From contig CAZQRR010000001.1 of the NCBI GenBank assembly GCA_964595675.1, positions 3,724 through 67,723 of the forward strand: a DNA stretch of 64,000 nucleotides. Reading direction: 5' to 3'. The position numbers were made by a program, and so were the translations under genes. Below the pieces are notes generated by a model. It had not been told where the DNA came from. It worked only from the letters and a program-made list of their open reading frames with translations, and ran no database searches. Each line of letters starts with the position of its first letter. Positions within the stretch are counted from its first letter, which is position 1. Positions 2,832 to 56,201 of the stretch are shown piece by piece. This stretch comes from an uncultured Rubrivirga sp. Lineage in GTDB: Bacteria; Actinomycetota; Actinomycetes; S36-B12.

Positions 2832-4352
2832 CTACTCCAGCCCCCCTAGGCGCTCGAAGAGCAGCGCGCGCACCTTGGCCGCGTCGGCCTGACCTTGGGT
2901 CGCCTTCATCACCGCTCCCACGATCGCACCCGCGGCTTGGACTTTGCCTCCACGGATCTTCTCGGCGACGTCGGGTTGCTCGGCGAGCGCGGCTTCGATC
3001 GCGGAGATCAACGTGGAGTCGTCGCTCACCACGACCAAACCGCGATCCGCCACGACGGTGTCGACGTCGCCTTCCCCGGTCACGACGCCTTCGAAAACCT
3101 GACGTGCGAGCTTGTCGGTGAGCGAACCATCGGCGATCAGTGCTTCGACGCGAGCGATGTGAGCGGCAGTGACTCCCAGGTCCGCCAGCGCGATCCCCTG
3201 CTCGTTGGCCATGCGGGTGAACTCCCCGGTCCACCACTTGCGCGCGGCCGCCTGATCCACGCCCGCTGCCACGGTCTCCTCGACGAGGTCGAGGGCCTCG
3301 GCGTTCACCAAAGTGGCCATGTCCAGATCGCTGATTCCCCACTCCTGCTGCAAGCGGGCTCTGCGTACCGAAGGAACCTCGGGCAAAGTGCCGCGGAGTT
3401 GCTCGACCCACTCCGCGCTGGGGGCCACCGGCACGAGGTCGGGCTCGGGGAAATACCGGTAGTCCTCGGCGTGCTCCTTGGATCGACCCGGCGTGGTTTC
3501 ACCGGTGTCCTCGTGGAAGTGCCGGGTCTCCTGGATGACTCGACCACCACTGGAGAGAACGGCAGCCTGGCGCTCGATCTCGAAGCGCACGGCCCGTTCC
3601 ACCGAACGCAGGGAGTTCACGTTCTTGGTCTCCGAGCGCGTTCCCCACGGTTCACCCGCAGGAGCAAGCGAGACGTTCACGTCGCATCGCAAGGAACCCT
3701 GATCCATTCGAACATCGGAAACCCCCAAAGCCCGCATCAAGTCGCGCAGCTCTGTCACGTAGGCACGAGCAACCACCGGGGCGAGGGCACCGGTTCCCAC
3801 GATCGGTTTGGTGACGATCTCGATCAACGGGATACCGGCACGGTTGTAGTCCACAAGCGAGTAGTCGGCGCCATGGATGCGGCCGGTGTCGCCGCCGGCA
3901 TGGGTGAGTTTCCCGGTGTCCTCTTCCATATGGACCCGCTCGATTTCCACGCGAAATTCACGCGGCCCTTCATCGGTGGGAATCGTCACGTCCAGGTATC
4001 CATCCGTGCACAGGGGCTCGTCGTACTGACTGACCTGGTAGTCCTTGGGCATATCGGGGTAGAAATAGTTCTTGCGCGCGAAACGGCACCAGGACGCGAT
4101 GTCGCAATGCAGCGCCAAACCCATCCTGATGGTCGATTCCACTGCAGCGCCATTCACCACGGGCAGCGAACCTGGCAGACCGAGGCAGACCGGACACACC
4201 TGCGTGTTCGGTGCAGCGCCGAATCCCGTAGCGCACGAGCAGAACATCTTGGAAGCAGTTCCGAGTTCCACGTGGGTCTCCAAACCCATGACGGGATCGA
4301 AGGCCGCGAGCGCATCGTCGAAGTTCATTCGCATGTCCGATTGAGCCGTCAT
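2832..4352 (-). CDS. gatB: Asp/Glu-tRNA amidotransferase subunit B
   Basis: [18 protein letters not shown]...[13 protein letters not shown] motifs. The start is trimmed to ATG 4350-4352, forming an ATGA overlap with the gatA stop. Confidence 0.95.
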
Positions 4353-23244: not shown

Positions 23245-23400
23245 ATACCCGATCCATGGTCGGATTCGCACCACAACTGAATGCACGCGCTCGACGTCCA
23301 GGGGAAGCCGGTGCAAATCCGGCGCTGTCCCGCAACCGTGAGTTCTCCGAGGTTCACACCTCGATCTGAATAAGTCGGAGCACCTGGCGAGCGCGAGCGG
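23245..23400 (+). promoter_or_regulatory. Cobalamin (AdoCbl) riboswitch aptamer
   Basis: AGGGGAAGCCGGTGCAAATCCGGCGCTGTCCCGCAACCGTGA (23300-23341) matches the conserved core. AGTCGGAGCACCTGG (23373-23387) matches the B12 box. It lies in the 351-nt leader of the 23535 operon. Outer boundaries are approximate. Confidence 0.85.
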
Positions 23401-23450
23401 CTCCATCCGTCGAGGTAACGGGACGAGTCCACGGGTCATTCCCTGACGCG

Positions 23451-23484
23451 TCCCTCATGCCACCTGCATGAGGGATTTTCGTTT
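23451..23484 (+). terminator. Intrinsic terminator/attenuator (riboswitch expression platform)
   Basis: Stem TCCCTCATG (23451-23459) / CATGAGGGA (23467-23475), 7-nt loop, then TTTTCGTTT. It sits 50 nt upstream of the first start codon. Confidence 0.75.
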
Positions 23485-23534
23485 GGCGGCTCAAGGACAA
23501 CGCTCCGGACCGCTCACTAGAAGGGGATCGACCT

Positions 23535-24578
23535 ATGGTCACCCGTAAGTTCACGTCCACGCTGGCGACTATCGCAGCTGCAGCACTCGGGGCTACGCTC
23601 CTAGCAGCACCTGCCCACGCCGCCGACACCGGTCTTTACGGCCAAACCGCACCCGCGTCGGACGCCGTTTACCGACAGTCCCTCGCTATCTTGGGACTGA
23701 CGGCAGTAGGCGTAAAGCCCGCACCAAGCGCCGTGCAGTGGCTGATCGATCAGCAGTGTGCGGACGGCAGTTTCCAGTCCTACCGAGAAGACGTATCCGT
23801 GCCGTGCGCACCCAGTGATCCGCAGGCCTTCAGCGGCCCGGATACGAACTCCACCGCACTTGCAGCAATGGCCCTCGAGGCCGTGGACGATGACCGTGCC
23901 GCCTCCCGTGCCGCCTCCCGTGCGGCCAACGCGCTGATCCGCGGCGCGCAGCGAAGCGGCAACCAAGCCTCCTGGCCGTACAACTTCGGAGGCACGCCCG
24001 ATGCGAGTAGCACCGGGCTCGTCGTGAATGCACTCGATGCAGTAGGGAGCAACTCAGCAACGATCACGGCAGGCCAACGCTGGCTCAGCGCCCGCATCAT
24101 CCCTTGCGGTCGCAAGTACGGAGGCGCTATGCGCAACGATGTCGCCTCCGCAGCTGCCAACAATTTCGGCACAGCACAAGGTCTCCTGGGATTGACCGAG
24201 GCGCTCCCCGTGGAAAGTACGTCAAATCCCGAGGCCAATCCGGCGTGCGCCGGATCCGCGGAGAAGCGGGTAGCGAGCTACCTTGCCCGCACCTTGACCC
24301 GCGATGGGATCCTCACCTACTCCGGTTTCGGCGGCAACGACTACGGCTCGACTTCTGCCGCCGTCGTAGGGCTCGGCGAAGCCCAGCTCGGGCGCCAGGG
24401 AATCAATTCGGCCGTTGCCGCCCTCAAGCGCGACGCCCGAGACTGGATCTCCACCGATGCTGGGGACAGCGTGGGTGCCGCCGGATGGTTGTTGATGGTT
24501 GCCGAGGCTTCGGGCGAGAACCCACGCTCCTTCGGTGGCGTCAACCTCATTCAGACCATCACCGGCAGCATCCGTTGA
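23535..24578 (+). CDS. Secreted prenyltransferase/squalene-oxidase-repeat (alpha/alpha toroid) protein
   Basis: Sec signal peptide (ATLLAAPAHA-AD). Terpene-cyclase-like repeat signatures (QQCADGSFQS, ASWPYNFGG). RBS GAAGGGGA upstream. Confidence 0.75.
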   Translation: MVTRKFTSTLATIAAAALGATLLAAPAHAADTGLYGQTAPASDAVYRQSLAILGLTAVGVKPAPSAVQWLIDQQCADGSFQSYREDVSVPCAPSDPQAFSGPDTNSTALAAMALEAVDDDRAASRAASRAANALIRGAQRSGNQASWPYNFGGTPDASSTGLVVNALDAVGSNSATITAGQRWLSARIIPCGRKYGGAMRNDVASAAANNFGTAQGLLGLTEALPVESTSNPEANPACAGSAEKRVASYLARTLTRDGILTYSGFGGNDYGSTSAAVVGLGEAQLGRQGINSAVAALKRDARDWISTDAGDSVGAAGWLLMVAEASGENPRSFGGVNLIQTITGSIR

Positions 24579-25267
24579 TCCTTCGGGTGGCGGCGTTCAG
24601 TGCACTCACTTTCGTGGGTGCGCTGGGCGCCGCTGCCCCATCCGCTGAGGCCAGCACTGCATACCGATATTGGTCGTACTGGATCGCCGGAGTTGATTCC
24701 TCACAGTGGCGCTATGCCACAGAGGGAAGCGGCACGCACGTTCCGGTCGACGGACAGGTCGAAGGTTGGCGTTTCGGCATCGCGGGTGATTCCTCTCTGA
24801 TCCAACCGACGCGATCGCCGGACTTCGGGTCGATCTGCGCGGGCGTCGAGCTGCCCGAGGGCGGGAAGCGGATTGCAGTGGTGATCGAACCCGGAGCCGT
24901 ACAGGAAGCACCCCCCGGTGAGACGCCGGGCGCGCCGCTGACCGAATGCGTCACGACCGACGCCATGAGCACCGGGCTTCAGGTACTCCAATCACTCGCG
25001 GACGTCAGGATGGAATCGGGCTTCGTTTGCGGCATCGATGGCTATCCAGCCAATGAGTGTGCACCGCTGGTGGAACTCCCCACTACGCCACCGTCGCAGA
25101 TCGACACGGTTGATGGCGCACAAAGCAGCGCCTTGGCCGCCAATGAGACGACGACTGAAACGAATGAAGGCTCCGCAGGCACCCCCCTGGTCACTGCCGC
25201 AACCGTGTCTGCTCTCGCGCTCGTTGGATTCGGCGTGTGGCGATACCGACGGCGACAGCAGGTCTGA
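24575..25267 (+). CDS. Secreted, C-terminally membrane-anchored protein (SCO2322-like family as I recall it)
   Basis: Only the last ~230 codons of ORF 24104..25267 look coding. A TTG at 24575 overlaps the upstream TGA (TTGA); GTG 24587 is an alternative. Signal peptide ...APSAEA-ST, aromatic-rich segment YRYWSYWIAG...WRFGI, Thr/Pro linker, TM helix and RYRRRQQV tail. Confidence 0.65.
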   Translation: MILRVAAFSALTFVGALGAAAPSAEASTAYRYWSYWIAGVDSSQWRYATEGSGTHVPVDGQVEGWRFGIAGDSSLIQPTRSPDFGSICAGVELPEGGKRIAVVIEPGAVQEAPPGETPGAPLTECVTTDAMSTGLQVLQSLADVRMESGFVCGIDGYPANECAPLVELPTTPPSQIDTVDGAQSSALAANETTTETNEGSAGTPLVTAATVSALALVGFGVWRYRRRQQV

Positions 25268-26388
25268 TGGCCATCACCGCAACCCGACCGCCGCTCGCCC
25301 GTGTTCACGCGGGTGACGAATACCGGCTGCTGCACCCCGTCGCCTGGTGGGTATGGGCCCTCGGGCTCGCAGCCGCAGCCAGCACCACCACCAATCCCCT
25401 ACTCCTCATCGGGGTGATGTCCGCTGCAGCCGTGGTGGTCGAATTGCGTAAACCCACCGCACCCTGGGCTCGCTCCTTCGGCTTCTTCGTCAAACTCGCC
25501 GCAATCGTCGTGATCATCCGCGTGTTGGCGCAGATGTTGATCGGCGCCCCCGGAGGTACCGTCAGGCTGCTACCTATGCCCGGTCTTGCATTGCCCGAAT
25601 GGATGGCCGGCGTTCGTCTCGGTGGCGATGTCATGCTCGAGCCACTTCTCGCAGCGTTCTACGACGGACTTCGTCTCGCCGCGATCTTGATCGCTATCGG
25701 AGCCGCAAGTTCTCTGGCATCACCCACCCGGCTACTGAAGTCCGTGCCCGCGGCCGTCTACGAGATTGGTGTGAGCATCGTGGTGGCCACTACGTTCCTA
25801 CCGCAGTTGGTGAGCGATCTCGCACGCATTCGGGCCAACCGACGCTTACGGGGTCGCCGGGAAAACGGTCTTGCGGGTGTTGGTGCCGCTGCCATGCCCG
25901 TACTGCACGGGGCGATGGATCGATCGATCACACTCGCGGCTGCGATGGATTCACGTGGCTACGGGCGCACCGGCCATCGCACAGTCGCCGAACGGCGGTT
26001 GTCGGCTGCCGCACTTTTGGCAGGCCTGCTCTTCGCCACCGTCGGTGCCTATGGATTGCTCGGTACCGGTGCGGCCTCATGGTGGGGCCCGATGCTGATC
26101 GTGATCGGCCTAGCGAGCGCGGGCGCGAGCTTGTTCCTTGCTGGTCGCCGTAGCGTGCGCACTCGGTACCGACCCAACGTCTGGTTCGCCAGCGATCTTG
26201 CGACTGCTGCGATCGGGACAACGGTTGCGGCGCTCTTCTTCATCGCCGCCGCGCTGTGGCCATCGGCCATGGCCACGGCCACGTCTCCTCCAGCCTGGCC
26301 ATCGCTTCCGCTTCTCGCAGTGTTCGGCATCGTCATCGGGGCACTTCCAGCCTTCATAACTCCTCGACCACCCAGGGAAGGCTCATGA
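25267..26388 (+). CDS. ECF transporter transmembrane (T) component, CbiQ/EcfT family
   Basis: The ATG overlaps the upstream TGA (TGATG). Multi-TM protein with two coupling-helix xRG motifs (ANRRLRG, MDSRGY). Extra C-terminal TM helices. Confidence 0.8.
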   Translation: MAITATRPPLARVHAGDEYRLLHPVAWWVWALGLAAAASTTTNPLLLIGVMSAAAVVVELRKPTAPWARSFGFFVKLAAIVVIIRVLAQMLIGAPGGTVRLLPMPGLALPEWMAGVRLGGDVMLEPLLAAFYDGLRLAAILIAIGAASSLASPTRLLKSVPAAVYEIGVSIVVATTFLPQLVSDLARIRANRRLRGRRENGLAGVGAAAMPVLHGAMDRSITLAAAMDSRGYGRTGHRTVAERRLSAAALLAGLLFATVGAYGLLGTGAASWWGPMLIVIGLASAGASLFLAGRRSVRTRYRPNVWFASDLATAAIGTTVAALFFIAAALWPSAMATATSPPAWPSLPLLAVFGIVIGALPAFITPRPPREGS

Positions 26389-28010
26389 TCGAGTTCGACC
26401 ACGTTTCTATTCGCTACAGCCCCGACGGGCGCGAAATCCTGCGCGACGTCGATTTCACGATCCTCGAAGGTGAGTTCGTTCTGGTCGTCGGAGGCACCGG
26501 ATCCGGCAAGAGCACACTGCTCGGATGCATCAACGGCCTCGTTCCCCACTTCACCGGTGGCGTGCTCAGCGGCGAGGTTCGTATCGACGGACGACCGACC
26601 TCCGATCACCGGCCTCGTGATCTTGCAGACATCGTCGGCGTAGTTCCGCAAGATCCCCTTGCCAGTTTCGTCACGGATACGGTCGAAGAAGAATTGGCAT
26701 ACACGATGGAGTGTCTGGGTATCAGTCCCGATGTGATGCGCCGTCGCGTTGAGGAGACTTTGGATCTCCTCGGCCTCGAGGAATTGCGGAATCGGCCCTT
26801 ACGGACATTGAGTGGCGGGCAGCGCCAACGCGTGGCCATCGGTGCGGTGCTCACCGCGCATCCACGGATCCTCGTCCTGGATGAACCGACATCGGCATTG
26901 GACCCGGGCGCCGCTGAAGAGGTACTCGCTGCTTTGCATCGCCTCGTGCACGACCTCGGCGTGACCGTCGTGCTGGCCGAACACCGACTCGAACGAGTGG
27001 TCCAATACGCCGATCGCGTGATCGCCCTATCCGAATCGGGCACGAGTGTGACGATCGGCGAACCGTCGGCCATCCTGGCTGCCACCACCATCGCACCCCC
27101 GGTGGTGCACTTGGCGAAAGTCGTTGGTTGGAACCCGACGCCCATCACCATCCGCGATGCGCGCCGCCAGGCTGCCCCGCTGCGCCAACTACTCGCTGGT
27201 TTGGCACCCGTGATGCGTGCCGTGCCGGACAGCGCAACCATCGTGTCAGCTCACGACGTCACTATCCGTTACCCGCAGGCTGTAGCTCTCAAGCACGTGG
27301 ACGTCTCGATTCGCCGTGGCGAGATAGTCGCCTTGATGGGCCGCAATGGTGCGGGCAAATCGTCATTCCTCAATTCGCTCGTCGGCACCGTCCGCCCTGC
27401 AGGGGGAACGGTCGTGGTCGATGGACACGCTCCGCACGAGTTGTCCGGGCCCGACCTCGTGCGTCACGTCGGACTGGTTCCGCAAGATCCCGGCGACCTT
27501 CTGGAGGCAAGCACAGTTTTCGACGAATGCGTCGCATCGGACCGCGATGCCGGATGTGCGCCTGGCACAACGCGCGCGATCCTCGCCCTTTTGGCGCCGG
27601 AAGTTCTCGACGGCACGCATCCTCGGGATCTGAGCGAAGGTCAGCGTCTGCTGTTGGCCCTGGCCATCATCCTCGCCGCCCAGCCCGCACTCATCTGCCT
27701 GGATGAGCCCACTCGTGGGTTGGACTATCACACGAAACAACGACTGACCACGATCATCACCGATCTTGCAGAAGCCGGGCACGCGATCGTTTTGGCAACC
27801 CACGACGTCGAGTTGACAGCTGAACTGGCCACCCGAGTAGTCATCCTCGCCGATGGTGAGGTGGTGGCGGATGGACCCACCGCCGAGGTCACCACTTCTT
27901 CACCCATGTTCGCTCCACAAGTTGCGAAGGTCCTGGCACCGGAGCGTTGGCTCACCGTGGGGCAGGTCCGCGTCGCCCTGGAGCAGCAAGCCCGTGAGGA
28001 TTCCGCATGA
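26385..28010 (+). CDS. Fused double ABC ATPase (EcfA-EcfA' type)
   Basis: Two Walker A motifs (GGTGSGKST, GRNGAGKSS), two signature motifs (LSGGQRQRV, LSEGQRLLL) and two Walker B motifs (LVLDEPT, ICLDEPT). ATGA overlap upstream. Confidence 0.9.
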   Translation: MIEFDHVSIRYSPDGREILRDVDFTILEGEFVLVVGGTGSGKSTLLGCINGLVPHFTGGVLSGEVRIDGRPTSDHRPRDLADIVGVVPQDPLASFVTDTVEEELAYTMECLGISPDVMRRRVEETLDLLGLEELRNRPLRTLSGGQRQRVAIGAVLTAHPRILVLDEPTSALDPGAAEEVLAALHRLVHDLGVTVVLAEHRLERVVQYADRVIALSESGTSVTIGEPSAILAATTIAPPVVHLAKVVGWNPTPITIRDARRQAAPLRQLLAGLAPVMRAVPDSATIVSAHDVTIRYPQAVALKHVDVSIRRGEIVALMGRNGAGKSSFLNSLVGTVRPAGGTVVVDGHAPHELSGPDLVRHVGLVPQDPGDLLEASTVFDECVASDRDAGCAPGTTRAILALLAPEVLDGTHPRDLSEGQRLLLALAIILAAQPALICLDEPTRGLDYHTKQRLTTIITDLAEAGHAIVLATHDVELTAELATRVVILADGEVVADGPTAEVTTSSPMFAPQVAKVLAPERWLTVGQVRVALEQQAREDSA

Positions 28011-28909
28011 AGACGACGCAGCCGTTGCAGATTCCCTCGCAGAAATCCTCGCGCCTGTCCTCTCGCACCGCCCGGGCGGTACCCATCGGCGGACGTTCGC
28101 TGCTTGCCATTGTGTTTGCCAGTGCTCTGGGAGTAGTCGCATTCGGTTGGCCATTTCTCGCAGCACCCGAATCCACTCTCGTCGCTCACGCCGACGACGC
28201 ACCCCTTATCTTCGCGATATTCCTGCCCGTGATCTTGCTCGTGGTTCTTGCGCAATTCGCCGATGGTGCCATGGATGCGAAGTCCATCGCCCTTCTCGGC
28301 GTTCTCGCCGCAGTGATAGCCGCGCTGCGTCCGTTGGGTGCTGGTGTGGCAGGAATCGAACCCATCTGGGCGGTACTCATCCTCGGTGGTTTCGCACTCG
28401 GGCCAGGTTTCGGCTTCGTACTTGGTGCGATCTCTTTGCTGGCATCGGCCTTGATCACCGGCGGAGTCGGACCTTGGTTGCCGTTCCAGATGTTCGCCGC
28501 CGCGTGGATCGGGCTTGGCGCCGGGCTACTCGGCCAGTTGCCTGCCGTCAAGCGCCTCACGCCAACGCATCCCTGGCGCGAGGTTGCCGTTGTTGCCGGG
28601 TACGCAGCCGTCGCAGCGGTCGCCTACGGATTCGCCTTGAACCTCTGGTTCTGGCCCTTCACCATCGACCTTGCACCGCAGATCGCCTTCACTCCCGGAG
28701 CACCCATCTCCGAGAACCTGATTGCCTGGCTGCGGTTCAATGTGATCACCTCCCTTGGCTTCGATATCCCACGCGCGCTCCTGGCGGCCGGGCTGATCAT
28801 CGTTGCGGGGCGAGGAATCCTGACTGCTCTGCGCCGGGCAAGCCGACGAGCCGCTTTCGATGCACCCATTGCATTCGAGCGATCCGATGGCGGAACCATT
28901 CGCACTTAG
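28007..28909 (+). CDS. ECF-type substrate-capture (S) component-like integral membrane protein
   Basis: ATGA overlap with the ATPase stop. About six TM helices after a basic N-terminal tail. It lacks the CbiM-type MHI N-terminus. Confidence 0.65.
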   Translation: MKTTQPLQIPSQKSSRLSSRTARAVPIGGRSLLAIVFASALGVVAFGWPFLAAPESTLVAHADDAPLIFAIFLPVILLVVLAQFADGAMDAKSIALLGVLAAVIAALRPLGAGVAGIEPIWAVLILGGFALGPGFGFVLGAISLLASALITGGVGPWLPFQMFAAAWIGLGAGLLGQLPAVKRLTPTHPWREVAVVAGYAAVAAVAYGFALNLWFWPFTIDLAPQIAFTPGAPISENLIAWLRFNVITSLGFDIPRALLAAGLIIVAGRGILTALRRASRRAAFDAPIAFERSDGGTIRT

Positions 28910-28932: not shown

Positions 28933-29346
28933 CTAGCCGTCTGATTCGACCAACGCTCGGGTGATGGGCGGCAAGAGCGAGACCACAAGACCCACCACTG
29001 CCGTGGCGATGAGGACGACCCCCACCTGCTGGGTTCCTGTGTCGGGTGCACCCACGAGAGGCACGCCCACCACAAGGGCCAAGAGTTGGGCCACGATGAA
29101 CGGGGCGCGTGCAGCGTATTTCACCCGCCACCAACCGACGGCGATCAGGAACATGGCGATGCCGAGGACCGCGAAAATCACGATCTGAAGAATCAGCCCG
29201 GGCAGGTTCGAGACTTCCTGGGGTCCGGTGATACCCACTCGGATCCCCTGGACGACGTCGAATATCGCGTAACCGATCAGCCCGATGCCCTGCACCACGG
29301 CTACACCCGCGGGAACCAGCACGAGACGCTGCGAGGGGACGCTCAC
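28933..29346 (-). CDS. Small integral membrane protein (4 TM), unknown function
   Basis: 137 aa with four clear hydrophobic helices. Confidence 0.6.
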   Translation of the reverse strand: MSVPSQRLVLVPAGVAVVQGIGLIGYAIFDVVQGIRVGITGPQEVSNLPGLILQIVIFAVLGIAMFLIAVGWWRVKYAARAPFIVAQLLALVVGVPLVGAPDTGTQQVGVVLIATAVVGLVVSLLPPITRALVESDG

Positions 29347-29375: not shown

Positions 29376-30371
29376 ATGCGGGCTCTCCTGGTGGTCAATC
29401 CGCGCGCGACCACCACGTCCACCGCCACCGCAGATGTCATCGTGCAGGCTCTATCGCACGAACTCGACCTAGAAGTGACCTTCACTACGCACCGCGGACA
29501 CGGTGTGGACCTCGGCAACTGGGCACTGGATAACCGACTCGACGCCGTCATCGCACTCGGTGGCGATGGTGTTGTCAACGAGGTTCTCAATGGCATTCTT
29601 CGAGACGGTCCCGGTCCCAACGTCCCAGCACTCGGAGTCATTCCCGGTGGCAGCGCCAACGTCTTCTCTCGTACCTTGAATATCCCGAACGATCCCGTTG
29701 AGGCGACCGGGGCCGTCCTGCGATCAGCACGAGCCGGCAGATTCCGCCGAATCGGCGTGGGGCATGTGAGGTTCGAGCAGGAAGCTCGCGAAGAGGGCTC
29801 TCGATGGTTCGTCGTGAACGCCGGATTGGGGATCGACGCTCAGATCATCGCGGCCATGGAACAGCAGCGTCACCGTGGGAAGAGGGCCACCCCGGGTAGG
29901 TACCTGATCACCACGATCCAGCAGTACGTGCGCGAGCGCGCGGGCACACCCATGACCTTGTCGCGACCGGGAGCCCGCCCGGTCGAGCATGTGCTGGTGA
30001 CGATCGTCCAGAACACCTCTCCGTGGACCTACTTCGGGGCCATTCCCATCGACCCATGCCCGCATGCCTCCTTCGAGACCGGCCTCGACGTCTTCGCTTT
30101 GCGGAGTTTGGATCCCCTGACCACCGTGCAGGCAGCCACCCGCATGCTCGGGCGGCTGAGCCGAGGCAGTAGCGGGCGGGGCTGGAAGGCCGGCGGCCCA
30201 GGTCGCATCGTGGTCTGGCACGACCAATCACGGTTCAGCGTCGAGGCCGAGGGCCGCGAAGGTTCGCTGCCCCTTCAGATCGACGGCGAGGGTCTGGGAA
30301 CGACCCGAAAGGCGACATTCGAATCCCACGCCCAGGCGCTTCTGGTGATGAGTAGCAGTTCCTCGGGCTGA
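29376..30371 (+). CDS. Diacylglycerol/lipid kinase family protein
   Basis: DAGK catalytic motif (VIALGGDGVVNEVLNG). 331 aa. Located next to whiB1, as I recall for Rv3218. Confidence 0.85.
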   Translation: MRALLVVNPRATTTSTATADVIVQALSHELDLEVTFTTHRGHGVDLGNWALDNRLDAVIALGGDGVVNEVLNGILRDGPGPNVPALGVIPGGSANVFSRTLNIPNDPVEATGAVLRSARAGRFRRIGVGHVRFEQEAREEGSRWFVVNAGLGIDAQIIAAMEQQRHRGKRATPGRYLITTIQQYVRERAGTPMTLSRPGARPVEHVLVTIVQNTSPWTYFGAIPIDPCPHASFETGLDVFALRSLDPLTTVQAATRMLGRLSRGSSGRGWKAGGPGRIVVWHDQSRFSVEAEGREGSLPLQIDGEGLGTTRKATFESHAQALLVMSSSSSG

Positions 30372-30424: not shown

Positions 30425-30570
30425 GCAGCCTGGCGCGAAACCTGGTCATTTAGGGTTGTGCCGACGCCGAGCCTCTGCGACCCTAGTGGAGCCCTAAGTC
30501 GGACTGATTGGGTCGCCTTCCTCCGAGGGTTCAGGGGAGATCCCCCTTCCCCCTCCTTGACGGGCCTAAT

Positions 30571-30586
30571 CGTGAAGGCTTTCACG
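30571..30586. promoter_or_regulatory. Candidate CRP/FNR-family site (proximal)
   Basis: CGTGA-AGGCTT-TCACG is a perfect inverted repeat with GTGA-N6-TCAC geometry. It ends 45 nt upstream of the whiB ATG. Confidence 0.45.
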
Positions 30587-30630
30587 AGTGCCGGCGACCC
30601 CGGTGCCCACCACCCTTGGAGGGATCACGC

Positions 30631-30885
30631 ATGGACTGGCGCCACGAGGCAGCCTGCCGTGACGAAGACCCGGAGTTGTTCTTCCCGATCGGCAATACCG
30701 GACCTGCCCTCATTCAAATCGAAGAGGCCAAGGCCGTCTGCCGACGCTGCCCGGTGGTCGACGAGTGCCTGCGGTGGGCTCTGGAGACGGGCCAGGACGC
30801 GGGCGTCTGGGGTGGCTTGAGCGAGGACGAGCGTCGAGCCTTGAAGCGCCGCAACGCTCGTCTGCGCGCTCGCACGAACGCCTGA
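30631..30885 (+). CDS. whiB1: WhiB-family [4Fe-4S] transcription factor (WhiB1-like)
   Basis: 84 aa. Four Cys (CRDEDPELFF...CRRCPVVDEC), GVWGG turn and a basic tail. RBS GGAGGG 8 nt upstream. The 125-aa ORF is trimmed to ATG 30631. Confidence 0.92.
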   Translation: MDWRHEAACRDEDPELFFPIGNTGPALIQIEEAKAVCRRCPVVDECLRWALETGQDAGVWGGLSEDERRALKRRNARLRARTNA

Positions 30886-30941: not shown

Positions 30942-32435
30942 TTAGTCGGGAATCTGCACATCCACGATGGCCCGAGTTCCGTAGGGATCCTCGGCGAACT
31001 CGAAGCTGCCGCCCAATTCGGTCTCGGCCAGGGACGTGACGATCTGCAAACCCAGTCCGGGCTCGGCGATGGTGGCGTGGTCGACTCCACGGCCATCATC
31101 TCGAATTTCGATGCGCAGGGATCCCGGTTCGCGAACAGCACGAACTTCGACGAATGTGCCGCCGGAATGATGGACGGCGTTGTGGATGAGTTCGGAGACA
31201 CACATGGCCAACGGAGTGGCAACTTCCGCCGGTAGCTGGCCCGCGTCGCCCTGCCTTTCAAGCCGGAATCCGCTGCGTGGATCCTCCACCGCGACGGCGA
31301 ATAGGGCCCGAACGATCTGATCGAAGTCCACGGATTCACCTAAATCCGCATTCTCCCCCGCCGAGAGGGCCTCATGCACAACCGCGATCGCCGCGACGCG
31401 CATCTGCGCATCCGCCAACGCTGCGCGGACGGCATCATCTTGCGATCGTCTCGATTGAAGTCGCAACAACGACGCCACCGTCTGGAGGTTGTTCTTCACC
31501 CGATGGTGGATCTCGCGGATCGTCGCATCTTTGGACAAGAGCGCCCGCTCACGACGCCGGATATCCGTGGTGTCACGCAGCAGGAGGAGCGCGCCGTCGC
31601 TTGTTCCCATCCGAGTGAGCAACGGCAGCGACCGCAGTAGCACGGTCGACCCCGGAGCCTCGATATCCGAACGACCCGCTACCTTCCCGCGAGCCAGATC
31701 CACCACGGCCGCGTCCGACGCCCCCCTGCGCTGCAACAAGCGGATGACCAAACTCGCGAGATCGACTCCGACCACGTCGGTTGCAAGGCCTAGTCGCCGT
31801 AGTGCACTGACCGCGTTCGGACTGGCATAGACCACTTCACCTTGTCGATCCAACCGGATGACCCCATCCCCCACGCGCGGGCGGCCACTTGCTCCCGTGA
31901 CCGTCTCCACGACCGGGAATGTGCCTGCAGCGAGCATCGCGAAGAGGATGTCCGCAGTCGACAGATAGAACTCCTCCAACTGCCCGGCCACCCGCGGGGC
32001 CGACGAGGTGTGGCGCACCACGACCCCGATCACGTCCCGATCCCTGCCGGCCTGACCTTCGTCGTCTGCTGACGATCCCTGCCGCTGGGGTCGATGGATC
32101 GGGTAGGCCTCGAGGCCGGTGGGAACCAACGGGCGCGAATCATCACGTGCATGGATGGTGCGGCCGAAGGTCAGGGCCTGGTCCACCGCGGAAATCCGTC
32201 CTCGCGGTGTGAACTTGCCGATGACGTCCTCGGGAACGCTTGTGGGCGCGGTGGTAGGTCGAACGTGTGCCACCGCAACGGCGCCCGCATCGTTCCATGT
32301 GGGCACCCACAGGACCAGGTCCGAAAGCGACAGGTCCGCAATGAGAGACCAGTCCTCGACGACCGATGTCAGGTAATCCAGATCCCCTGGCGACAGATCG
32401 GTACGTTCCTTCACCAAACGTGCAGGTATCGGCAC
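30942..32435 (-). CDS. pdtaS: PdtaS-like sensor histidine kinase (GAF/PAS N-terminus, HisKA_2 + HATPase_c)
   Basis: H-box EIHHRVKNNLQTVASLLRLQ; ATPase motifs ELIHNAVHH, DDGRG, GLGLQIV. Adjacent to whiB1 as in mycobacteria. The start is trimmed to GTG 32433-32435 (alternatives TTG 32417, GTG 32414). Confidence 0.8.
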   Translation of the reverse strand: MPIPARLVKERTDLSPGDLDYLTSVVEDWSLIADLSLSDLVLWVPTWNDAGAVAVAHVRPTTAPTSVPEDVIGKFTPRGRISAVDQALTFGRTIHARDDSRPLVPTGLEAYPIHRPQRQGSSADDEGQAGRDRDVIGVVVRHTSSAPRVAGQLEEFYLSTADILFAMLAAGTFPVVETVTGASGRPRVGDGVIRLDRQGEVVYASPNAVSALRRLGLATDVVGVDLASLVIRLLQRRGASDAAVVDLARGKVAGRSDIEAPGSTVLLRSLPLLTRMGTSDGALLLLRDTTDIRRRERALLSKDATIREIHHRVKNNLQTVASLLRLQSRRSQDDAVRAALADAQMRVAAIAVVHEALSAGENADLGESVDFDQIVRALFAVAVEDPRSGFRLERQGDAGQLPAEVATPLAMCVSELIHNAVHHSGGTFVEVRAVREPGSLRIEIRDDGRGVDHATIAEPGLGLQIVTSLAETELGGSFEFAEDPYGTRAIVDVQIPD

Positions 32436-32458
32436 GGAACACAAAGTAGCGTGACCGC

Positions 32459-34225
32459 GTGACCGATCCCGACCCGCGCGCCGGCGAGGAGCCGCGCCAT
32501 GGTGGCCATCATTCGATCGATGCGGCCGTTGCGCACGGAGCCCAGGCACTGTTCACCCTGTCGGGAGCGCACATCTTCCCGCTCTTCGACGCAGCGGTCG
32601 GGGGCGCCGAAGCGGTGAAGGCAGCCTCCGATCCCCGCACGGCCGAGCGCTCGGGACCCTTGCGGCTCATCGATGTGCGCCACGAGCAGACGGCCGTATT
32701 CGCCGCCGAGGCAGTCGGCAAACTCAGCCGCACACCCGGATTCGCTGCAGTTACGGCTGGTCCGGGGGTCACCAACGCCATGAGCGCGGTAACCGGCGCC
32801 TGGATGAACGGAAGTCCACTCGTGCTCATCGGGGGCCGGGCACCCGACTATCGCTGGGGTTCAGGCGCACTGCAGGAACTCGACCACGTTCCTTTGCTCG
32901 AACCGGTTACCAAGAAGGCGTGGACTATCCACGATCCAGCCCGCATCGGACCTGACGTCGCACGCGCGTTCGACCTGGCCGCCACCGCCCACCGAGGTCC
33001 GGTGTTCATCGACGTACCCATGGACGCTCTGTTCACTCCCACTATGTCGGACCCGGATGCCAACTACACCGGGGGCGATGCCGGGGGCCACATCGGTACC
33101 GCGGTGAACGGCGCCGTGACAAACGGGATCGTGACTAACGGGATCGTGACGGGACCCATCGACCAGGTCGCTTCCATCCTGGTGCGCGCGCAGCGCCCCG
33201 TGGTTGTGGTCGGATCCGACGTGTGGGCCGGGAATGCGATCGATTTCGCCCGTGCGTTCATTGCCGAACTGGGGATGCCGACGATCTCGAATGGCATGGG
33301 CCGGGGCACACTCAAGCCCACGGACCCACTCCTGGTCACGCGAGCCCGCTCACGCGCATTCGCCGAGGCCGACGTGGTAGTGGTCATCGGTGCGCCTTTG
33401 GACTTCCGACTCGGCTACGGGAAGTTCGGCGCGCAGACCCCCGCAACCGTGATCCATTTCGTCGATGCCCCATCACAAGTGGCCGAGCATGCAACCGAGG
33501 CAGTCTCCATCGTCGGTGAATTCAACGAATCGCTGCCCCAGGTACTCGAAGCATGCCTTTCAGGTTCACTTGACCCACGTCGGTGGCGTGAGTGGGCGAG
33601 CACTCTGCGCGAAGTCTCTGAGCAGGCCTGGGCGAAGGACGTCGAGATCCTGGAGAGCAATGCAACACCCATCCACCCTGCGCGGATCTATGGAGAGTTG
33701 CGATCGCGAATCGCTGACGACGACATCGTCATCGGCGACGGCGGGGACTTCGTATCCTTCGCCGGACGATTCATCGAGCCTGCGCAGGCGGGCTGCTGGC
33801 TGGATCCCGGGCCTTTCGGTTGTCTGGGCACAGGACCCGGCTACGCACTCGGTGCTCACGTTGCCCGGCCCGATGCCCACCCGTGGCTCCTGCTGGGCGA
33901 TGGCGCGGCGGGATTCTCCCTGATGGATGTGGAGTCCTTGGTCCGACACCAGGTGCCCGTGACGATGGTGATCGGAAACAACGCCGGTTGGGGACTCGAG
34001 CGCCATCCGATGCGATTCCTATACGGCTATGACGTCATCGCCGATCTCCCACCGATCTCCTACGACGACGTCGTGAAAAGTCTCGGTGGAGCCGGCGAAA
34101 CCGTGACTGATCCGGCAAAGATCGGAGCGGCGCTAGACCGAGCTCGTGCCTACCGTGGGCCCTACTTGGTCAATGTCCTCACCGATCCGGAAATCGCCTA
34201 CCCGCGATCCACCACCGGGGTCTAA
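32459..34225 (+). CDS. Thiamine-pyrophosphate-dependent enzyme (acetolactate synthase large-subunit family)
   Basis: 588 aa. TPP-binding motif GDGAAGFSLMDVESLVRHQVPVTMVIGNN and an N-terminal Pyr domain. GTG start. Confidence 0.85.
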   Translation: MTDPDPRAGEEPRHGGHHSIDAAVAHGAQALFTLSGAHIFPLFDAAVGGAEAVKAASDPRTAERSGPLRLIDVRHEQTAVFAAEAVGKLSRTPGFAAVTAGPGVTNAMSAVTGAWMNGSPLVLIGGRAPDYRWGSGALQELDHVPLLEPVTKKAWTIHDPARIGPDVARAFDLAATAHRGPVFIDVPMDALFTPTMSDPDANYTGGDAGGHIGTAVNGAVTNGIVTNGIVTGPIDQVASILVRAQRPVVVVGSDVWAGNAIDFARAFIAELGMPTISNGMGRGTLKPTDPLLVTRARSRAFAEADVVVVIGAPLDFRLGYGKFGAQTPATVIHFVDAPSQVAEHATEAVSIVGEFNESLPQVLEACLSGSLDPRRWREWASTLREVSEQAWAKDVEILESNATPIHPARIYGELRSRIADDDIVIGDGGDFVSFAGRFIEPAQAGCWLDPGPFGCLGTGPGYALGAHVARPDAHPWLLLGDGAAGFSLMDVESLVRHQVPVTMVIGNNAGWGLERHPMRFLYGYDVIADLPPISYDDVVKSLGGAGETVTDPAKIGAALDRARAYRGPYLVNVLTDPEIAYPRSTTGV

Positions 34226-42689: not shown

Positions 42690-43247
42690 CTACGAGGGCT
42701 TACGGACGCGTGCCCCGGGTCGCCCCCCACACGACAGCGCAAGGGCGATGACGATTTCATCGGCATGCGGAGCATCGGGGACACTGACGTCCACCGAATC
42801 CATGTCGTCGAAGACCCACCTGTCGTCCTTATTGCCTATCGGCATGGTGATCTGAGCGCCCGGCCCGGCGACCTTCTTGGTTCCAGGGATGATGTCGGCC
42901 CCACCACCGATGGCATATCGAACCGGCGCCCCGAAACGGGGATGCAGGATCGCTGCGGTGTGTTCTCGGTCCCCGGCGACCCCCACGATCGCACCCTTGC
43001 CGTAACCGCGCACCGAATCGGCACCCAGTCCCACGGCTGCGAGCACTTGAAGGCAACGTTCCACCAGGAATGCCGCTGCATGCGAGCCCAGTTCCTCGAG
43101 TTCACTCAATTCCTCAACACGCCCTCGACCCGCGAGCGGGTTGTGGACCACCACGGCGCACGTGGCGACGATGGTCGGTGGGGTGATCTCCGCTCCGGCC
43201 TCCCGCAGGGTTTCGTGGAGACTTGAATGGACAGCCCTGACCTTCAC
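42690..43247 (-). CDS. Amino-acid-synthesis (AA_synth, PF06684-like) family protein
   Basis: GKGAIVGVAGDREHTAAILHPRFGAPVR...IPGTKKVAGPG...DAPHADEIVIALA matches my memory of this family. Trimmed to GTG 43245-43247, giving a GTGA overlap with the fbiC stop. Confidence 0.75.
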   Translation of the reverse strand: MKVRAVHSSLHETLREAGAEITPPTIVATCAVVVHNPLAGRGRVEELSELEELGSHAAAFLVERCLQVLAAVGLGADSVRGYGKGAIVGVAGDREHTAAILHPRFGAPVRYAIGGGADIIPGTKKVAGPGAQITMPIGNKDDRWVFDDMDSVDVSVPDAPHADEIVIALALSCGGRPGARVRKPS

Positions 43248-45619
43248 CCTGCTACTCCATTCATGTCGATGAGTGGTTGATACACCGTGGTCCGCTGCTC
43301 GAGAATGCGACCGATGGGCTCCAGCTCGCGGGCGAGCTCCGCGGGATCCATGCCCTGACCATGGGTGGCTCCAGCGGCGCGGGAGATGTTCTCGTCCATG
43401 AGCGTCCCACCGACGTCGTTGACTCCGCCCTGCAAGAGTTGCTTCACTCCAGGAATACCGAGCTTCACCCATGAGGCCTGAACGTTGTCGATGAGCCCTC
43501 GATAAGCGATGCGGCCGATCGCATGCATCAAGACGACCTCCCGCCAAGTGGGGCCACGGCGGGCTTTGCGCTTCAAATAGACCGGGGAAGCCATGTGTAC
43601 GAACGGCAGAGGTATGAACTCGGTGAACCCACCGGTACGTCGTTGCAGGTCGCGCGTGGCGAGGATGTGGGCAATCCAGTGTTCGGGTTGCTCGACACTC
43701 CCGAACATGATCGTGACGTTCGATCGCAGTCCCAAGCGGTGCGCCGTTTCGTGCACCATCAACCACTCGTCAGTGGTCACCTTGTCCGGACACAAGATGG
43801 CGCGAATATCGTCGTGCAGGATCTCAGCGGCAGTCCCAGGCAGCGACGCTAATCCTGCGTCCTTCATCCGCTGCAGGTAGGAGTCCAACGGCTCACCCAG
43901 TCGCCGCGAACCTTCGAGAATCTCGAGTGCGGTGAAGCCATGCACATGCATCGCGGGAACGGCCTTTTTGACCACCTCGGTCACGCGGACGTAGTAGTCG
44001 CCGTCGAAGTCCGGATGTATCCCGCCCTGCAAGCACACTTCGGTGGCTCCGTGGGATGCGGCTTCCACGACCCGTGCGGCGATCTCCTCGTCGTCCAGGA
44101 GATAGGGCTTCCCTCGGAGGTTCAAGGACAACGGGCCCTTCGAGAAGCCACAGAAGGTGCATTTGTATGTACAGACGTTGGTGTAGTTGATATTCCGGTT
44201 CCGCACATATGTCACCGCAGAGCCGTTGACCTGCGCGCGTATCTCGTCCGCCACTGCGGCGATGGCTGCTACTTCCCGTCCGCGCGCCGCGAACAAGGTG
44301 GCGAGTTCGGGAGCGTCGACCCGTTGACCCGCACGAACACCGGCGAGCACCTCGCCAACGGCACCGGAGATGTCACTCGAACGCGGAATGAGGGCAACAG
44401 GCAACCGTTCGGCACCCGCGTACCAAGCCGTGGAGCGCCGTCCGATCTGGATTACCTCGGCACCAGTACCGACATTCGCAGCGTCCTGGTACTTCTCAGG
44501 GAAAACGGCACCCGGATCATCTCGCGCCAGACCTTCGGCATCGCTTCGGTCCAGGACCGCGAAGTGCAAGCCTTCATCGATCCAGTCATGAGCGCTGAGC
44601 ACGAATTCCGGGTAGACCGTCAGACGCGGAGCCAGTTCCCTGCCGCTGGCCTCAGCGGCGAACCGGAGCGCCTCCAAGGACGGCCACGGCTTCTCGGGAT
44701 TGACGTGGTCGATGGTGACCGGCGAGACGCCACCGAAGTCATCGATACCGGCCTCGATGATCGCCGTGATGTCGTCGACCAGATTGGGAGGTGCCTGCAC
44801 GTGGACGCTCGAGGGCAAGACCGCGCGCGCAAGCGCGATGGCATCGACGAGGTCATCAATCGAGCACGCGGGCTCATCCCGCATGCCGGTGCCCGCCTTG
44901 GGCACGAAGTTCTGGACGATCACCTCCTGGATATGCCCGTACTTCGCGTGGCTGGCAGCTATCGCTTCCAACGCGACCACGCGGTCGGATCTTGACTCCC
45001 CGAAGCCGACCAGGATGCCTGTGGTGAACGGGATGGCCAACTCGCCCGCAAAGTCGAGTGTGGCCAGACGACGAGCCGGATCCTTGTCCGGGGCACCGCG
45101 GTGCGCCGGAAGGTCGGGATTCAATGACTCGATCATCATTCCCTGACTCGGGGCAACGGTCCGCAGACGGGCTAGGTCGTCTCGCCCGAGAGCGCCGGCG
45201 TTGGCGTGTGGCAGCAATCCCGAGGTCTCGAGAACCCGCCTGCATGCAGCGACCAGGTAGTCGATCGTGGACTCGTAGCCGTTCGCATCGAGCCAATCGC
45301 GTGCCTGCGGATACCGATCCTCGGGGTACTCCCCCAGCGTGAAGAGCGCTTCATGGCAGCCGGCTTGCGCACCCTGGCTTGCGATTCGCTCCACGTCATC
45401 CAAGGACAGGTAGGGCGACGGTAGGTGGTGCGGGGCTTGGGCGAAGGTGCAGTAACCGCAGCGATCCCGGCACAACTGCGTGAGAGGGATGAAGACTTTC
45501 GGCGAGTAGGTGATTCGACTCGTGATCTCGCTGGACGGCTTCGTTGAACCAGGATCGATCGACCCAGGACCGATGGACAACGCTGCCTCCGTCTCGCAAC
45601 TCGACCCGATAACCGACAA
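43244..45619 (-). CDS. fbiC: FO synthase (7,8-didemethyl-8-hydroxy-5-deazariboflavin synthase), fused CofG/CofH
   Basis: Two radical-SAM clusters (CRDRCGYC in the N-terminal half, CTYKCTFC in the C-terminal half), 791 aa. The TTG start at 45617-45619 is uncertain. Confidence 0.92.
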   Translation of the reverse strand: MSVIGSSCETEAALSIGPGSIDPGSTKPSSEITSRITYSPKVFIPLTQLCRDRCGYCTFAQAPHHLPSPYLSLDDVERIASQGAQAGCHEALFTLGEYPEDRYPQARDWLDANGYESTIDYLVAACRRVLETSGLLPHANAGALGRDDLARLRTVAPSQGMMIESLNPDLPAHRGAPDKDPARRLATLDFAGELAIPFTTGILVGFGESRSDRVVALEAIAASHAKYGHIQEVIVQNFVPKAGTGMRDEPACSIDDLVDAIALARAVLPSSVHVQAPPNLVDDITAIIEAGIDDFGGVSPVTIDHVNPEKPWPSLEALRFAAEASGRELAPRLTVYPEFVLSAHDWIDEGLHFAVLDRSDAEGLARDDPGAVFPEKYQDAANVGTGAEVIQIGRRSTAWYAGAERLPVALIPRSSDISGAVGEVLAGVRAGQRVDAPELATLFAARGREVAAIAAVADEIRAQVNGSAVTYVRNRNINYTNVCTYKCTFCGFSKGPLSLNLRGKPYLLDDEEIAARVVEAASHGATEVCLQGGIHPDFDGDYYVRVTEVVKKAVPAMHVHGFTALEILEGSRRLGEPLDSYLQRMKDAGLASLPGTAAEILHDDIRAILCPDKVTTDEWLMVHETAHRLGLRSNVTIMFGSVEQPEHWIAHILATRDLQRRTGGFTEFIPLPFVHMASPVYLKRKARRGPTWREVVLMHAIGRIAYRGLIDNVQASWVKLGIPGVKQLLQGGVNDVGGTLMDENISRAAGATHGQGMDPAELARELEPIGRILEQRTTVYQPLIDMNGVAG

Positions 45620-56124: not shown

Positions 56125-56201
56125 TGGTAGCGGGGGCAGGATTTGAACCTGCGACCTCTGGGTTATGAGCCCAGCGAGCTACCGAGCTGCTCCACCCCGC
56201 G
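56125..56201 (-). tRNA. Initiator tRNA-Met (CAT)
   Basis: Reverse complement: CGCGGGGTGGAGCAGCTCGGTAGCTCGCTGGGCTCATAACCCAGAGGTCGCAGGTTCAAATCCTGCCCCCGCTACCA. Full cloverleaf, C1:U72 mismatch, three G:C pairs closing the anticodon stem, encoded CCA. Confidence 0.95.

Follow-up and report, generated by a model that had tools for sequence, protein, structure and literature searches.

A cobalamin-riboswitch-controlled actinobacterial operon for a probable CbrVUT-type corrinoid importer with two putative extracytoplasmic partner proteins

Introduction

The closest described counterpart of the system reported here is ECF-CbrT of Lactobacillus delbrueckii, an energy-coupling factor (ECF) transporter that carries cobalamin and cobinamide and whose CbrT is PDB entry 6FNP (PMC5997447). 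A B12 transporter of this kind, CbrUVT, was predicted by Rodionov et al. in 2009, as recounted in three later papers (PMC5997447, PMC8123684, PMC6722938), and the L. plantarum pMF1298-5 operon was named CbrV-CbrU-CbrT by its authors (PMC6722938). Here we describe a five-gene operon and its leader RNA, at positions 23288-28909 of a 64-kb stretch of actinobacterial DNA (64,000 nucleotides of contig CAZQRR010000001.1, called the window below), in which a cobalamin riboswitch and genes for two putative extracytoplasmic proteins precede those for a predicted transporter of the CbrVUT type. The transporter core and the riboswitch are of already known kinds, CbrVUT importers having long been predicted by comparative genomics. 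A first-pass annotation of this DNA, made from the letters alone, had been aware of no experimental work on the gene set; for the core, with its predicted CbrUVT and characterised CbrT, that statement does not hold, and for the two accessory proteins it stands, our literature searches having found no paper on the pair or on the SCO2321 and SCO2322 families discussed below.

Most bacteria require B12 yet cannot make it, and the scavenging of corrinoids shapes microbial communities. B12 uptake is poorly defined in actinobacteria besides the mycobacteria, which use BacA. Carriers of the transcobalamin type bind B12 between two domains, and BtuG and BtuH of Bacteroides are surface B12 binders, which have the TonB-dependent BtuB downstream of them. 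The C-terminal domain of vertebrate transcobalamins and B12 carriers is known as DUF4430 (PMC4350170), a family that recurs below in a bacterial setting.

Operon layout and leader RNA

The operon consists of five plus-strand genes, numbered here in order from the leader. Gene 1 (23535-24578) encodes a 347-aa protein predicted to be a secreted, unanchored alpha/alpha-toroid resembling SCO2321 of Streptomyces coelicolor; gene 2 (24575-25267, with a TTG start) a 230-aa member of the SCO2322 family with a putatively anchored, beta-rich ectodomain; gene 3 (25267-26388) a 373-aa CbrV-like candidate ECF T component; gene 4 (26385-28010) a 541-aa, CbrU-like fused double ECF ATPase; and gene 5 (28007-28909) a 300-aa putative ECF S component of the CbrT family. 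Direct reading of the four junctions, at which stop and start codons overlap (TTGA at 24575, TGATG at 25265, ATGA at 26385 and ATGA at 28007), agreed in every case with the first-pass description of the five genes as joined by such overlaps, and the translations begin and end where that description had placed them.

Comparison of the leader with Rfam gave a match to the AdoCbl-II family (RF01689) at 23288-23393 of the plus strand, with a score of 44.6 bits relative to a gathering score of 36.5 (E 1.8e-7). The first-pass annotation had recognised a cobalamin riboswitch with a B12 box at this place and had named family RF00174; the riboswitch and its box are there, and the best family is RF01689, both families belonging to clan CL00101. 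The B12 box, AAGTCGGAGCACCTGGC at about 23372-23388, is unchanged across relatives. A custom covariance model, which gave 109 bits at the window riboswitch, was consistent with this assignment, as was the covariation in the alignment of relatives, in which 97.3% of the cells in the riboswitch helices are paired and 18 of the 27 pairs exhibit compensatory changes. None of 500 shuffled controls was as good as the real alignment, and controls in which the structure was slid were only 29-47% paired.

The segment that follows, from 23394 to 23534 (+), has the features of an expression platform, with a terminator-like hairpin and its U-rich tail between a conserved linker and a Shine-Dalgarno sequence. 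The hairpin and U tract that had been noted about 50 nt before the first start codon were found by a terminator scan at 23450-23476 (+), the hairpin being followed by TTTCGTTTGG and a U-rich tail that extends to about position 23486; the distance from hairpin to the gene 1 ATG (23535) is approximately 50 nt. The Shine-Dalgarno element, GAAGGGGA, lies at 23520-23527, upstream of this ATG. The minimum free energy (MFE) fold of the platform has a z-score of -2.57, and among seven close relatives the terminator stem is invariant, its loop is variable, and the platform as a whole is nearly constant. By these features, control would be exerted through attenuation of transcription at the hairpin and U tract. 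We also observed that the sequences GAGCGGCTCC (23395-23404) and GCTCCGGACCGCTC (23500-23515) are constant in the seven relatives and are paired with each other around the terminator hairpin in the MFE fold. Possibly, the expression platform forms a long-range or alternative helix through this pairing of GAGCGGCTCC with GCTCCGGACCGCTC.

The transporter genes

The product of gene 3 gave weak matches to the EcfT chains 4hzu_T and 4huq_T in the PDB (E 8e-5) and, by BLASTP, to CbrV of L. plantarum (E 2e-5). The window protein itself had no Pfam match, and its homologues bear the Pfam domain CbiQ; the evidence for a T component of the EcfT/CbiQ family in the operon is therefore weak but consistent. 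Gene 4 encodes two ABC_tran domains within one polypeptide, which passed the TIGR01166 cbiO model (256.6 versus a cut-off of 211.8), scored about 303 bits on ECF_ATPase_1 and ECF_ATPase_2 (TIGR04520 and TIGR04521), slightly below their equivalog cut-offs, and aligned over its full length with L. plantarum CbrU at 32% identity (E 3e-78). The gene 5 product scored 30.4 bits on PF12822, marginally below the cut-off of 30.7, and the same family is recorded on a gene 5 homologue in another of our loci (L085; handles of this form denote individual loci). Its N-terminal extension bears additional transmembrane segments, the protein has no CbiM N-terminus of the MH.. type, and the operon includes neither CbiN nor a gene of a substrate-binding protein family.

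The identity of the S component was approached through the L. plantarum pMF1298-5 CbrVUT operon. Gene 5 is related to the S component of that operon by BLASTP (32% identity, E 4e-14) and by hhalign (97.8% probability), and the L. plantarum protein in turn matched chain A of 6FNP, CbrT, at 1.8e-9. Because of this chain of homology, together with the CbrU and CbrV matches, the core appears to be a CbrVUT-type corrinoid importer. Genes 3-5 had been read in the first pass as an EcfT, a fused double ATPase and an S component without the CbiM N-terminus, forming a dedicated ECF importer; the matches above agree with that reading on each count, and we classify the three genes by their sequences as a dedicated (group I) ECF transporter of the CbrVUT type, for which a corrinoid is the most likely substrate. 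With ECF-CbrT of L. delbrueckii it would have in common a T component, ATPases, an S component of the CbrT family and a B12-linked context. Unlike that system, in which the ECF module is shared (group II), the window transporter is a dedicated one with a fused double ATPase, its S component of 300 aa has an N-terminal extension and is too diverged for a direct match to 6FNP, and its operon has a preceding B12 riboswitch and genes for two extracytoplasmic proteins.

The riboswitch and gene order in relatives

Relatives of gene 2 were sought with one genome per species; at least 497 were found, and 80 loci were examined. A riboswitch of the Rfam cobalamin clan was present in 8 of the 9 loci tested, with RF01482, RF01689 or RF00174 at the matching position. 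With the custom covariance model, which was built from these riboswitches, we observed exactly one match per locus in the window and in 62 loci, always on the coding strand and directly 5' of the operon's first gene. The other 18 of the 80 loci all end at a contig boundary within gene 1 or gene 2, and since they lack the upstream DNA in question, the co-occurrence of riboswitch and homologous operon, which the first pass had suggested as a check, amounts to 62 of the 62 loci in which it could be seen. The order of genes 1 to 5 is conserved among the relatives, and gene 2 is present with the riboswitch in every locus.

Salvage genes form a further part of the context. In 35 of the 48 loci with enough downstream DNA, cobU, cobT and cobS lie directly 3' of gene 5 on the same strand, and in L087 the first salvage gene overlaps the gene 5 stop codon. 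This adjacency ties the operon to the salvage of incomplete corrinoids, and it agrees with the corrinoid substrate that the CbrT link suggests and that the first-pass annotation had thought possible. The extension is not present in the window or its nearest relatives. The CobU of such loci (for example L087:14406-17564) is fused to an N-terminal domain of metallo-beta-lactamase fold (Lactamase_B_2 + CobU), an unusual fusion.

One locus is organised differently from the others. At L079:6449-9047, the riboswitch is followed only by homologues of gene 1 (398 aa) and of gene 2, the latter long at 400 aa, and no ECF genes lie near; prs and glmU-like genes come next, on the opposite strand. Because riboswitch, gene 1 and gene 2 occur here together without ECF genes, it appears that the accessory pair is itself B12-regulated and can stand alone.

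It should be noted that several contigs from metagenome-assembled genomes (L001, L007, L012, L015, L025, L030, L036 and L039) carry the names of implausible organisms, such as 'uncultured Rubrivirga sp.', or 'Bifidobacterium breve' from lake samples. Such labels on contigs with a high-GC actinobacterial operon are probably database taxonomy errors.

The two accessory proteins

Gene 2 passed the NCBIfam model SCO2322_fam (NF040672) with 139 bits versus a cut-off of 85, and the corresponding Pfam family, PF28005 (SCO2322), is recorded on 75 of 75 homologues and on the identical protein in L081 and L082. The SCO2321 and SCO2322 families are curated (NCBIfam, and Pfam for PF28005) without functional annotation; that of gene 2 comprises 2341 representatives at 50% identity. 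In the AlphaFold2 (AF2) model, the signal peptide is followed by a beta-rich core (residues 27-170) with a predicted local distance difference test score (pLDDT) above 90, a disordered Thr/Pro-rich linker (171-202), and a C-terminal transmembrane helix (204-229) with an Arg-rich tail, the same four parts that had been proposed from the translation. Invariant residues are YRYWSYW (Y30-W36), W45, GW at positions 64-65, R145 and four cysteines, with no conserved histidine; the cysteines are likely to form disulfides in a secreted protein. Because the conserved residues are aromatic residues and cysteines, and include no histidine, a large organic ligand would fit better than a metal ion. An 8-residue motif, GW(R/M)(F/Y)x(I/V)xG, is common to gene 2 and DUF4430 and is not significant. 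Membership of gene 2 in DUF4430 was considered and is not supported, four independent tests for likeness to DUF4430 or transcobalamin having all been negative.

Gene 1 begins with a hydrophobic signal that ends AHA|AD, behind which the AF2 model (pLDDT 91.7) is an alpha/alpha toroid; the Sec signal and cyclase-type repeats of the first-pass description are thus both in evidence. The best Foldseek matches of this model are class II terpene cyclases, namely drimenyl-diphosphate synthase and squalene-hopene cyclase (SHC), both at E ~5e-6 and TM-score ~0.5, and MstE. The thioester domains (TED) of complement and thioester-containing proteins (TEP) rank next, and glycosidase toroids of families GH8, GH76 and GH15 rank lower; no transcobalamin structure is among the 50 best. 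Profile searches gave a similar picture, in that the family profile matched SHC in the PDB at E 3.8e-21, and SQHop_cyclase_C, SQHop_cyclase_N and Prenyltrans of Pfam were matched by 42-49 of 56 family members, with TED_complement also matched. In the aggregate, the SHC, Pfam and Foldseek matches support a toroid fold with QW-type repeats. Pfam Cobalamin_bind (PF01122), in contrast, was matched by 0 of the 56 homologues at E<=10. A DxDD motif is present in just 2 of the 56, in a non-conserved column, and the conserved segment reads GPDTNSTA, so that, judging by motifs, the gene 1 product is non-catalytic. Four cysteines are invariant in the family, as is expected of disulfides in a secreted protein, and W69, Q74, R84, D156 and D269 are invariant as well.

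In relation to the S. coelicolor pair SCO2321-SCO2322, the window pair is alike in that gene 2 passes the SCO2322 cut-off and SCO2321 is the best NCBIfam match of gene 1. The match of gene 1 to SCO2321_fam (NF053823, an equivalog model) differs in that it reaches 174 bits versus a cut-off of 300 and covers model positions 11-351 of 405, without the C-terminal anchor region. No C-terminal anchor is present on gene 1 in any of 62 close loci, and by sequence we regard gene 1 as a related, anchor-less subfamily of SCO2321.

A distant gene 1 homologue of 418 aa, at L087:8748-10004, has a sortase cell-wall sorting signal at its C-terminus, where a Pro/Thr linker leads into LPATGG and the chain closes with hydrophobic residues and RRP. 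The presence of an LPXTG signal on a distant homologue argues that the gene 1 family works at the cell surface, and a surface protein without an anchor of its own, as in the window clade, must therefore be retained by something else.

Counterparts in Lactobacillaceae

A parallel arrangement is found in Lactobacillaceae CbrVUT operons, which encode EcfT, a double ATPase, an S component, a protein of about 350 aa and a DUF4430 protein. We examined that of pMF1298-5 (L088:26169-31276) and two chromosomal ones (L089:3739-8760 and L090:2188-7277). The ~350-aa protein, which is annotated 'fucose-binding lectin II', is a distant relative of gene 1 (hhalign 89%, E 2e-6, over 113 columns), and its best PDB matches, although weak, are the same SQHop_cyclase_C proteins; the lectin name is probably wrong for this toroid-like protein. 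Cobalamin_bind was weakly matched by 1 of 24 of these proteins (E 0.0028). The small partner is a genuine DUF4430 protein, and the loci adjoin nrdJ, cobS or a pdu operon.

The operons of the two groups are alike in having five genes, among them one for a secreted toroid-like protein of ~350 aa and one for a signal-peptide protein (~235 aa in Lactobacillaceae) with a long low-complexity linker and a small beta domain, and both occur in B12 contexts, those of Lactobacillaceae being nrdJ, cobS and pdu. They differ in several respects. The accessory genes are last in Lactobacillaceae and first in the window; the small partner is a DUF4430 protein in the one and an SCO2322 protein in the other, with no detectable relationship between the two; and the beta domain is C-terminal to the linker in Lactobacillaceae, whereas in the window it is N-terminal, with a transmembrane anchor at the C-terminus. 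It follows from this parallel that in two phyla a toroid and a small secreted beta protein go with the CbrT-type transporter, and that the small partner is a different one in each.

Two further occurrences of DUF4430 genes came to our attention. At L090:8410-9570 (-), between the CbrVUT/DUF4430 cluster and a pdu operon (with a B12-dependent diol dehydratase and bacterial microcompartment shell genes), lies a gene for an AraC-type regulator with a DUF4430 domain, which may be a B12-sensing regulator. At L091:7001-15050, a toroid-like gene occurs with two DUF4430 genes, a gene for a CobC-like histidine phosphatase and cobS, with no adjacent ECF genes; the same locus has a T-box leader at 3648-3882 (-).

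Discussion

The interpretation that we favour, with moderate confidence, is that the operon encodes a B12-repressed corrinoid importer of the CbrVUT type in which the two extracytoplasmic partners serve as a tethered module for capture and hand-off. Its parts differ in strength: we regard the transporter and its regulation as very probable, and the capture of corrinoids by genes 1 and 2 as nearly an even question. According to this model, at high intracellular adenosylcobalamin the aptamer at 23288-23393 would be occupied and the hairpin and U tract would stop transcription, and at low B12 the five translationally coupled genes would be made. From homology to L. delbrueckii ECF-CbrT, the gene 5 product would bind cobalamin or cobinamide and topple against the gene 3 product, with the gene 4 product driving the cycle. 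The beta-rich domain of gene 2 would be tethered to the membrane through the long flexible linker and C-terminal helix; the soluble toroid of gene 1 would probably be held at the surface by binding to gene 2; and the pair would most likely capture scarce corrinoids within the cell wall or outside it and pass them to the S component. The riboswitch, the gene set, the folds, the conservation and the linkage to cobU, cobT and cobS are what the analysis shows directly, and the substrate, the attenuation and the roles of genes 1 and 2 are drawn from these by inference.

A toroid and a small beta protein that feed an ECF-CbrT transporter offer a plausible functional analogy to transcobalamin, because the Lactobacillaceae CbrVUT operons have a toroid-like protein together with a genuine DUF4430 protein. 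Like transcobalamin, intrinsic factor and haptocorrin, which combine Cobalamin_bind with DUF4430, the window pair would bring together, outside the cell, an alpha/alpha toroid and a beta domain of small size that serve B12 uptake; unlike them, it is divided between two polypeptides, gene 1 is nearer to terpene cyclases and TED, and gene 2 is not DUF4430. More tentatively, and with rather less assurance than an even question would carry, we suggest that an SCO2321-like toroid and an SCO2322 beta protein form an actinobacteria-wide extracellular device for corrinoid capture, a non-homologous counterpart of transcobalamin with a new beta fold, that feeds an ECF transporter. There is also a likeness in concept to BtuG/BtuH and to the Isd/Lha relay of heme from surface receptors to an ECF transporter (PMC7299338), in that a surface protein catches a scarce cofactor and passes it to a membrane transporter; the folds (beta-propeller, NEAT and others) are unrelated to those described here, and the envelope type and downstream transporter differ.

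Several observations weigh against the favoured interpretation, in whole or in part. The link of gene 5 to CbrT is transitive only, as a PDB search with the single sequence and with a 15-sequence family profile gave no match to 6FNP at E<=10. Elsewhere in the 64-kb window we recognised no cobU, cobT or cobS, no gene for a B12-dependent enzyme and no other B12 gene, and in the Lactobacillaceae counterpart loci (L088, L089 and L090) no B12 riboswitch was found. Corrinoid binding by the gene 1 and gene 2 products, and the association of the two with each other, are steps that we infer, and an extracytoplasmic binding protein is, to our knowledge, not classically a requirement of ECF transporters. 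The gene 2 model gave no fold match in the PDB by Foldseek (best E 0.65), DUF4430 (PF14478) was matched by 0 of 43 gene 2 family members at E<=10, and hhalign of gene 2 with one DUF4430 protein and with a five-sequence DUF4430 profile gave probabilities of 0.4-0.5%. Finally, gene 1 is missing, with the riboswitch directly before gene 2, from loci of Kribbella, Marmoricola and Nocardioidaceae (L022, L045, L060, L061, L068, L073, L075, L076 and L080), and the toroid gene is also missing from L037, L058, L062 and L077. Since loci without the toroid gene keep the riboswitch and gene 2, gene 1 is dispensable in some lineages.

Some of these observations can be accommodated by supposing that the corrinoid importer is real and that genes 1 and 2 are merely co-regulated with it, as non-binding envelope or assembly factors that, for example, hold the ECF complex stable or in place, maintain an opening across the thick actinobacterial wall, or bind a wall polymer. 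Such a role would suit the high affinity with which ECF S components bind substrate alone (PMC5997447), the use of small accessory proteins, for example CbiN, by other ECF systems (PMC2667541), a gene 2 product without a known ligand-binding fold, the glycosidase toroids among the lower Foldseek matches of gene 1, and the absence of gene 1 from some lineages. We nonetheless consider it unlikely, as gene 1 has its sequence affinity with the toroids of terpene cyclases, prenyltransferases and TED and not with those of glycosidases, the pair occurs under a B12 riboswitch of its own without ECF genes in L079, and the equivalent position in Lactobacillaceae is held by DUF4430, a domain of vertebrate B12 carriers (PMC4350170). 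More doubtful still is the proposal that genes 1 and 2 are genuine, though far diverged, homologues of the alpha and beta domains of transcobalamin or intrinsic factor and clamp B12 between them. It is the strict form of what had been raised in the first-pass annotation as a possible split transcobalamin-like system. Gene 1 does belong to the same fold class, the alpha6/alpha6 toroid, and the proposal can also draw on the single weak Cobalamin_bind match in the Lactobacillaceae relatives of gene 1 and on the non-significant motif that gene 2 has in common with DUF4430. Against this are the absence of transcobalamin from the 50 best structures and of Cobalamin_bind from the gene 1 family, and the negative results with gene 2 in both fold and profile comparisons. 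Because the structures of transcobalamin, intrinsic factor and haptocorrin have been solved, the lack of a PDB match for gene 2 weighs against homology. As a statement of homology the earlier claim accordingly finds no support for either protein, and the analogy survives.

The remaining alternatives change the substrate or the activity. B12 riboswitches also govern cobalt transporters (PMC2667541), gene 4 passes a model named for cbiO, and the T component homologues match CbiQ, so the operon might be supposed to import cobalt or another metal for B12 synthesis, in the manner of a B12-riboswitch CbiMNQO system, with genes 1 and 2 as metal-capture proteins. The S component is, however, CbrT-like and lacks the CbiM N-terminal motif, CbiN is missing, the neighbours in relatives are late salvage genes (cobU, cobT and cobS) and not genes for corrin-ring synthesis or a chelatase, and gene 2 has no conserved histidine and cysteines that are likely to be in disulfides. 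We rejected the cobalt reading on S-component type and salvage-gene context, and rate it as highly improbable. Lower again in probability, and close to negligible, is the reading of gene 1 as an active extracellular enzyme of the terpene-cyclase or prenyltransferase kind, in an operon concerned with an isoprenoid and not with B12. Class II terpene cyclases are indeed the best matches of gene 1 in both sequence and structure; yet the protein is putatively a secreted, single toroid of 320 aa, control by a B12 riboswitch is universal in its relatives, and the catalytic DxDD, the absence of which led us to reject this reading, occurs only at the non-conserved site mentioned above.

Under the favoured interpretation, that of a corrinoid importer with a surface capture module, the locus would be of some consequence. 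The operon type is widespread (2341 gene 2 clusters at 50% identity, and at least 497 species-level genomes), it is invariably controlled by a B12 riboswitch, and it is usually joined to genes for cobinamide salvage; for these reasons it is the natural candidate for the role of principal corrinoid importer in the organisms that have it. If the pair does bind corrinoids, it would represent a new B12-binding fold and, among descriptions of vitamin ECF transporters, the first surface capture module; the rule by which ECF transport does without extracytoplasmic binding proteins would be overturned, and many B12-dependent actinobacteria, abundant freshwater lineages of the Nanopelagicales type among them, would have in the operon their main route for scavenging B12. 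Together with the toroid and DUF4430 pairs of Lactobacillaceae, it would also offer a clue to a bacterial ancestry, or to a convergent origin, of animal B12 carriers. If the pair does not bind corrinoids, the locus would be a well-conserved member of the predicted CbrVUT class. In either case we are presented with a very widespread and strictly B12-regulated pair of surface proteins that lacks an explanation and that is directly testable.

Surroundings of the operon

The window, of 63% G+C, belongs to an ordinary stretch of the actinobacterial core chromosome. The operon is surrounded by ilvD, gatAB, ligA, glycogen genes, an aldo-keto reductase gene, a gene resembling that of diacylglycerol kinase (DAGK), whiB, pdtaS and aroA, and the position of the operon after the aldo-keto reductase gene is syntenic across relatives. 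An open reading frame (ORF) for a hydrophobic protein of 137 aa, with good coding statistics and no Pfam match, lies at 28933-29346 (-) and runs towards the operon's end. The DAGK-like gene occupies 29376-30371, and downstream of it is a WhiB-type ORF at 30508-30885 (+), recognised from the Cys motifs in its translation only. This ORF adjoins a gene for a PdtaS-type histidine kinase with GAF_PdtaS and HisKA_2 domains, at 30942-32549 (-). Farther along, at 43244-45619 (-), a 791-aa protein is encoded in which the radical SAM domain is matched in two stretches and a CofH_C region is present; these matches suggest an FO synthase of the F420 pathway in which CofG and CofH are fused. A Met-type tRNA gene (anticodon CAU, 63.6 bits) was found at 56128-56201 (-), adjoining a gene for a 994-aa UPF0182 membrane protein at 56240-59224.

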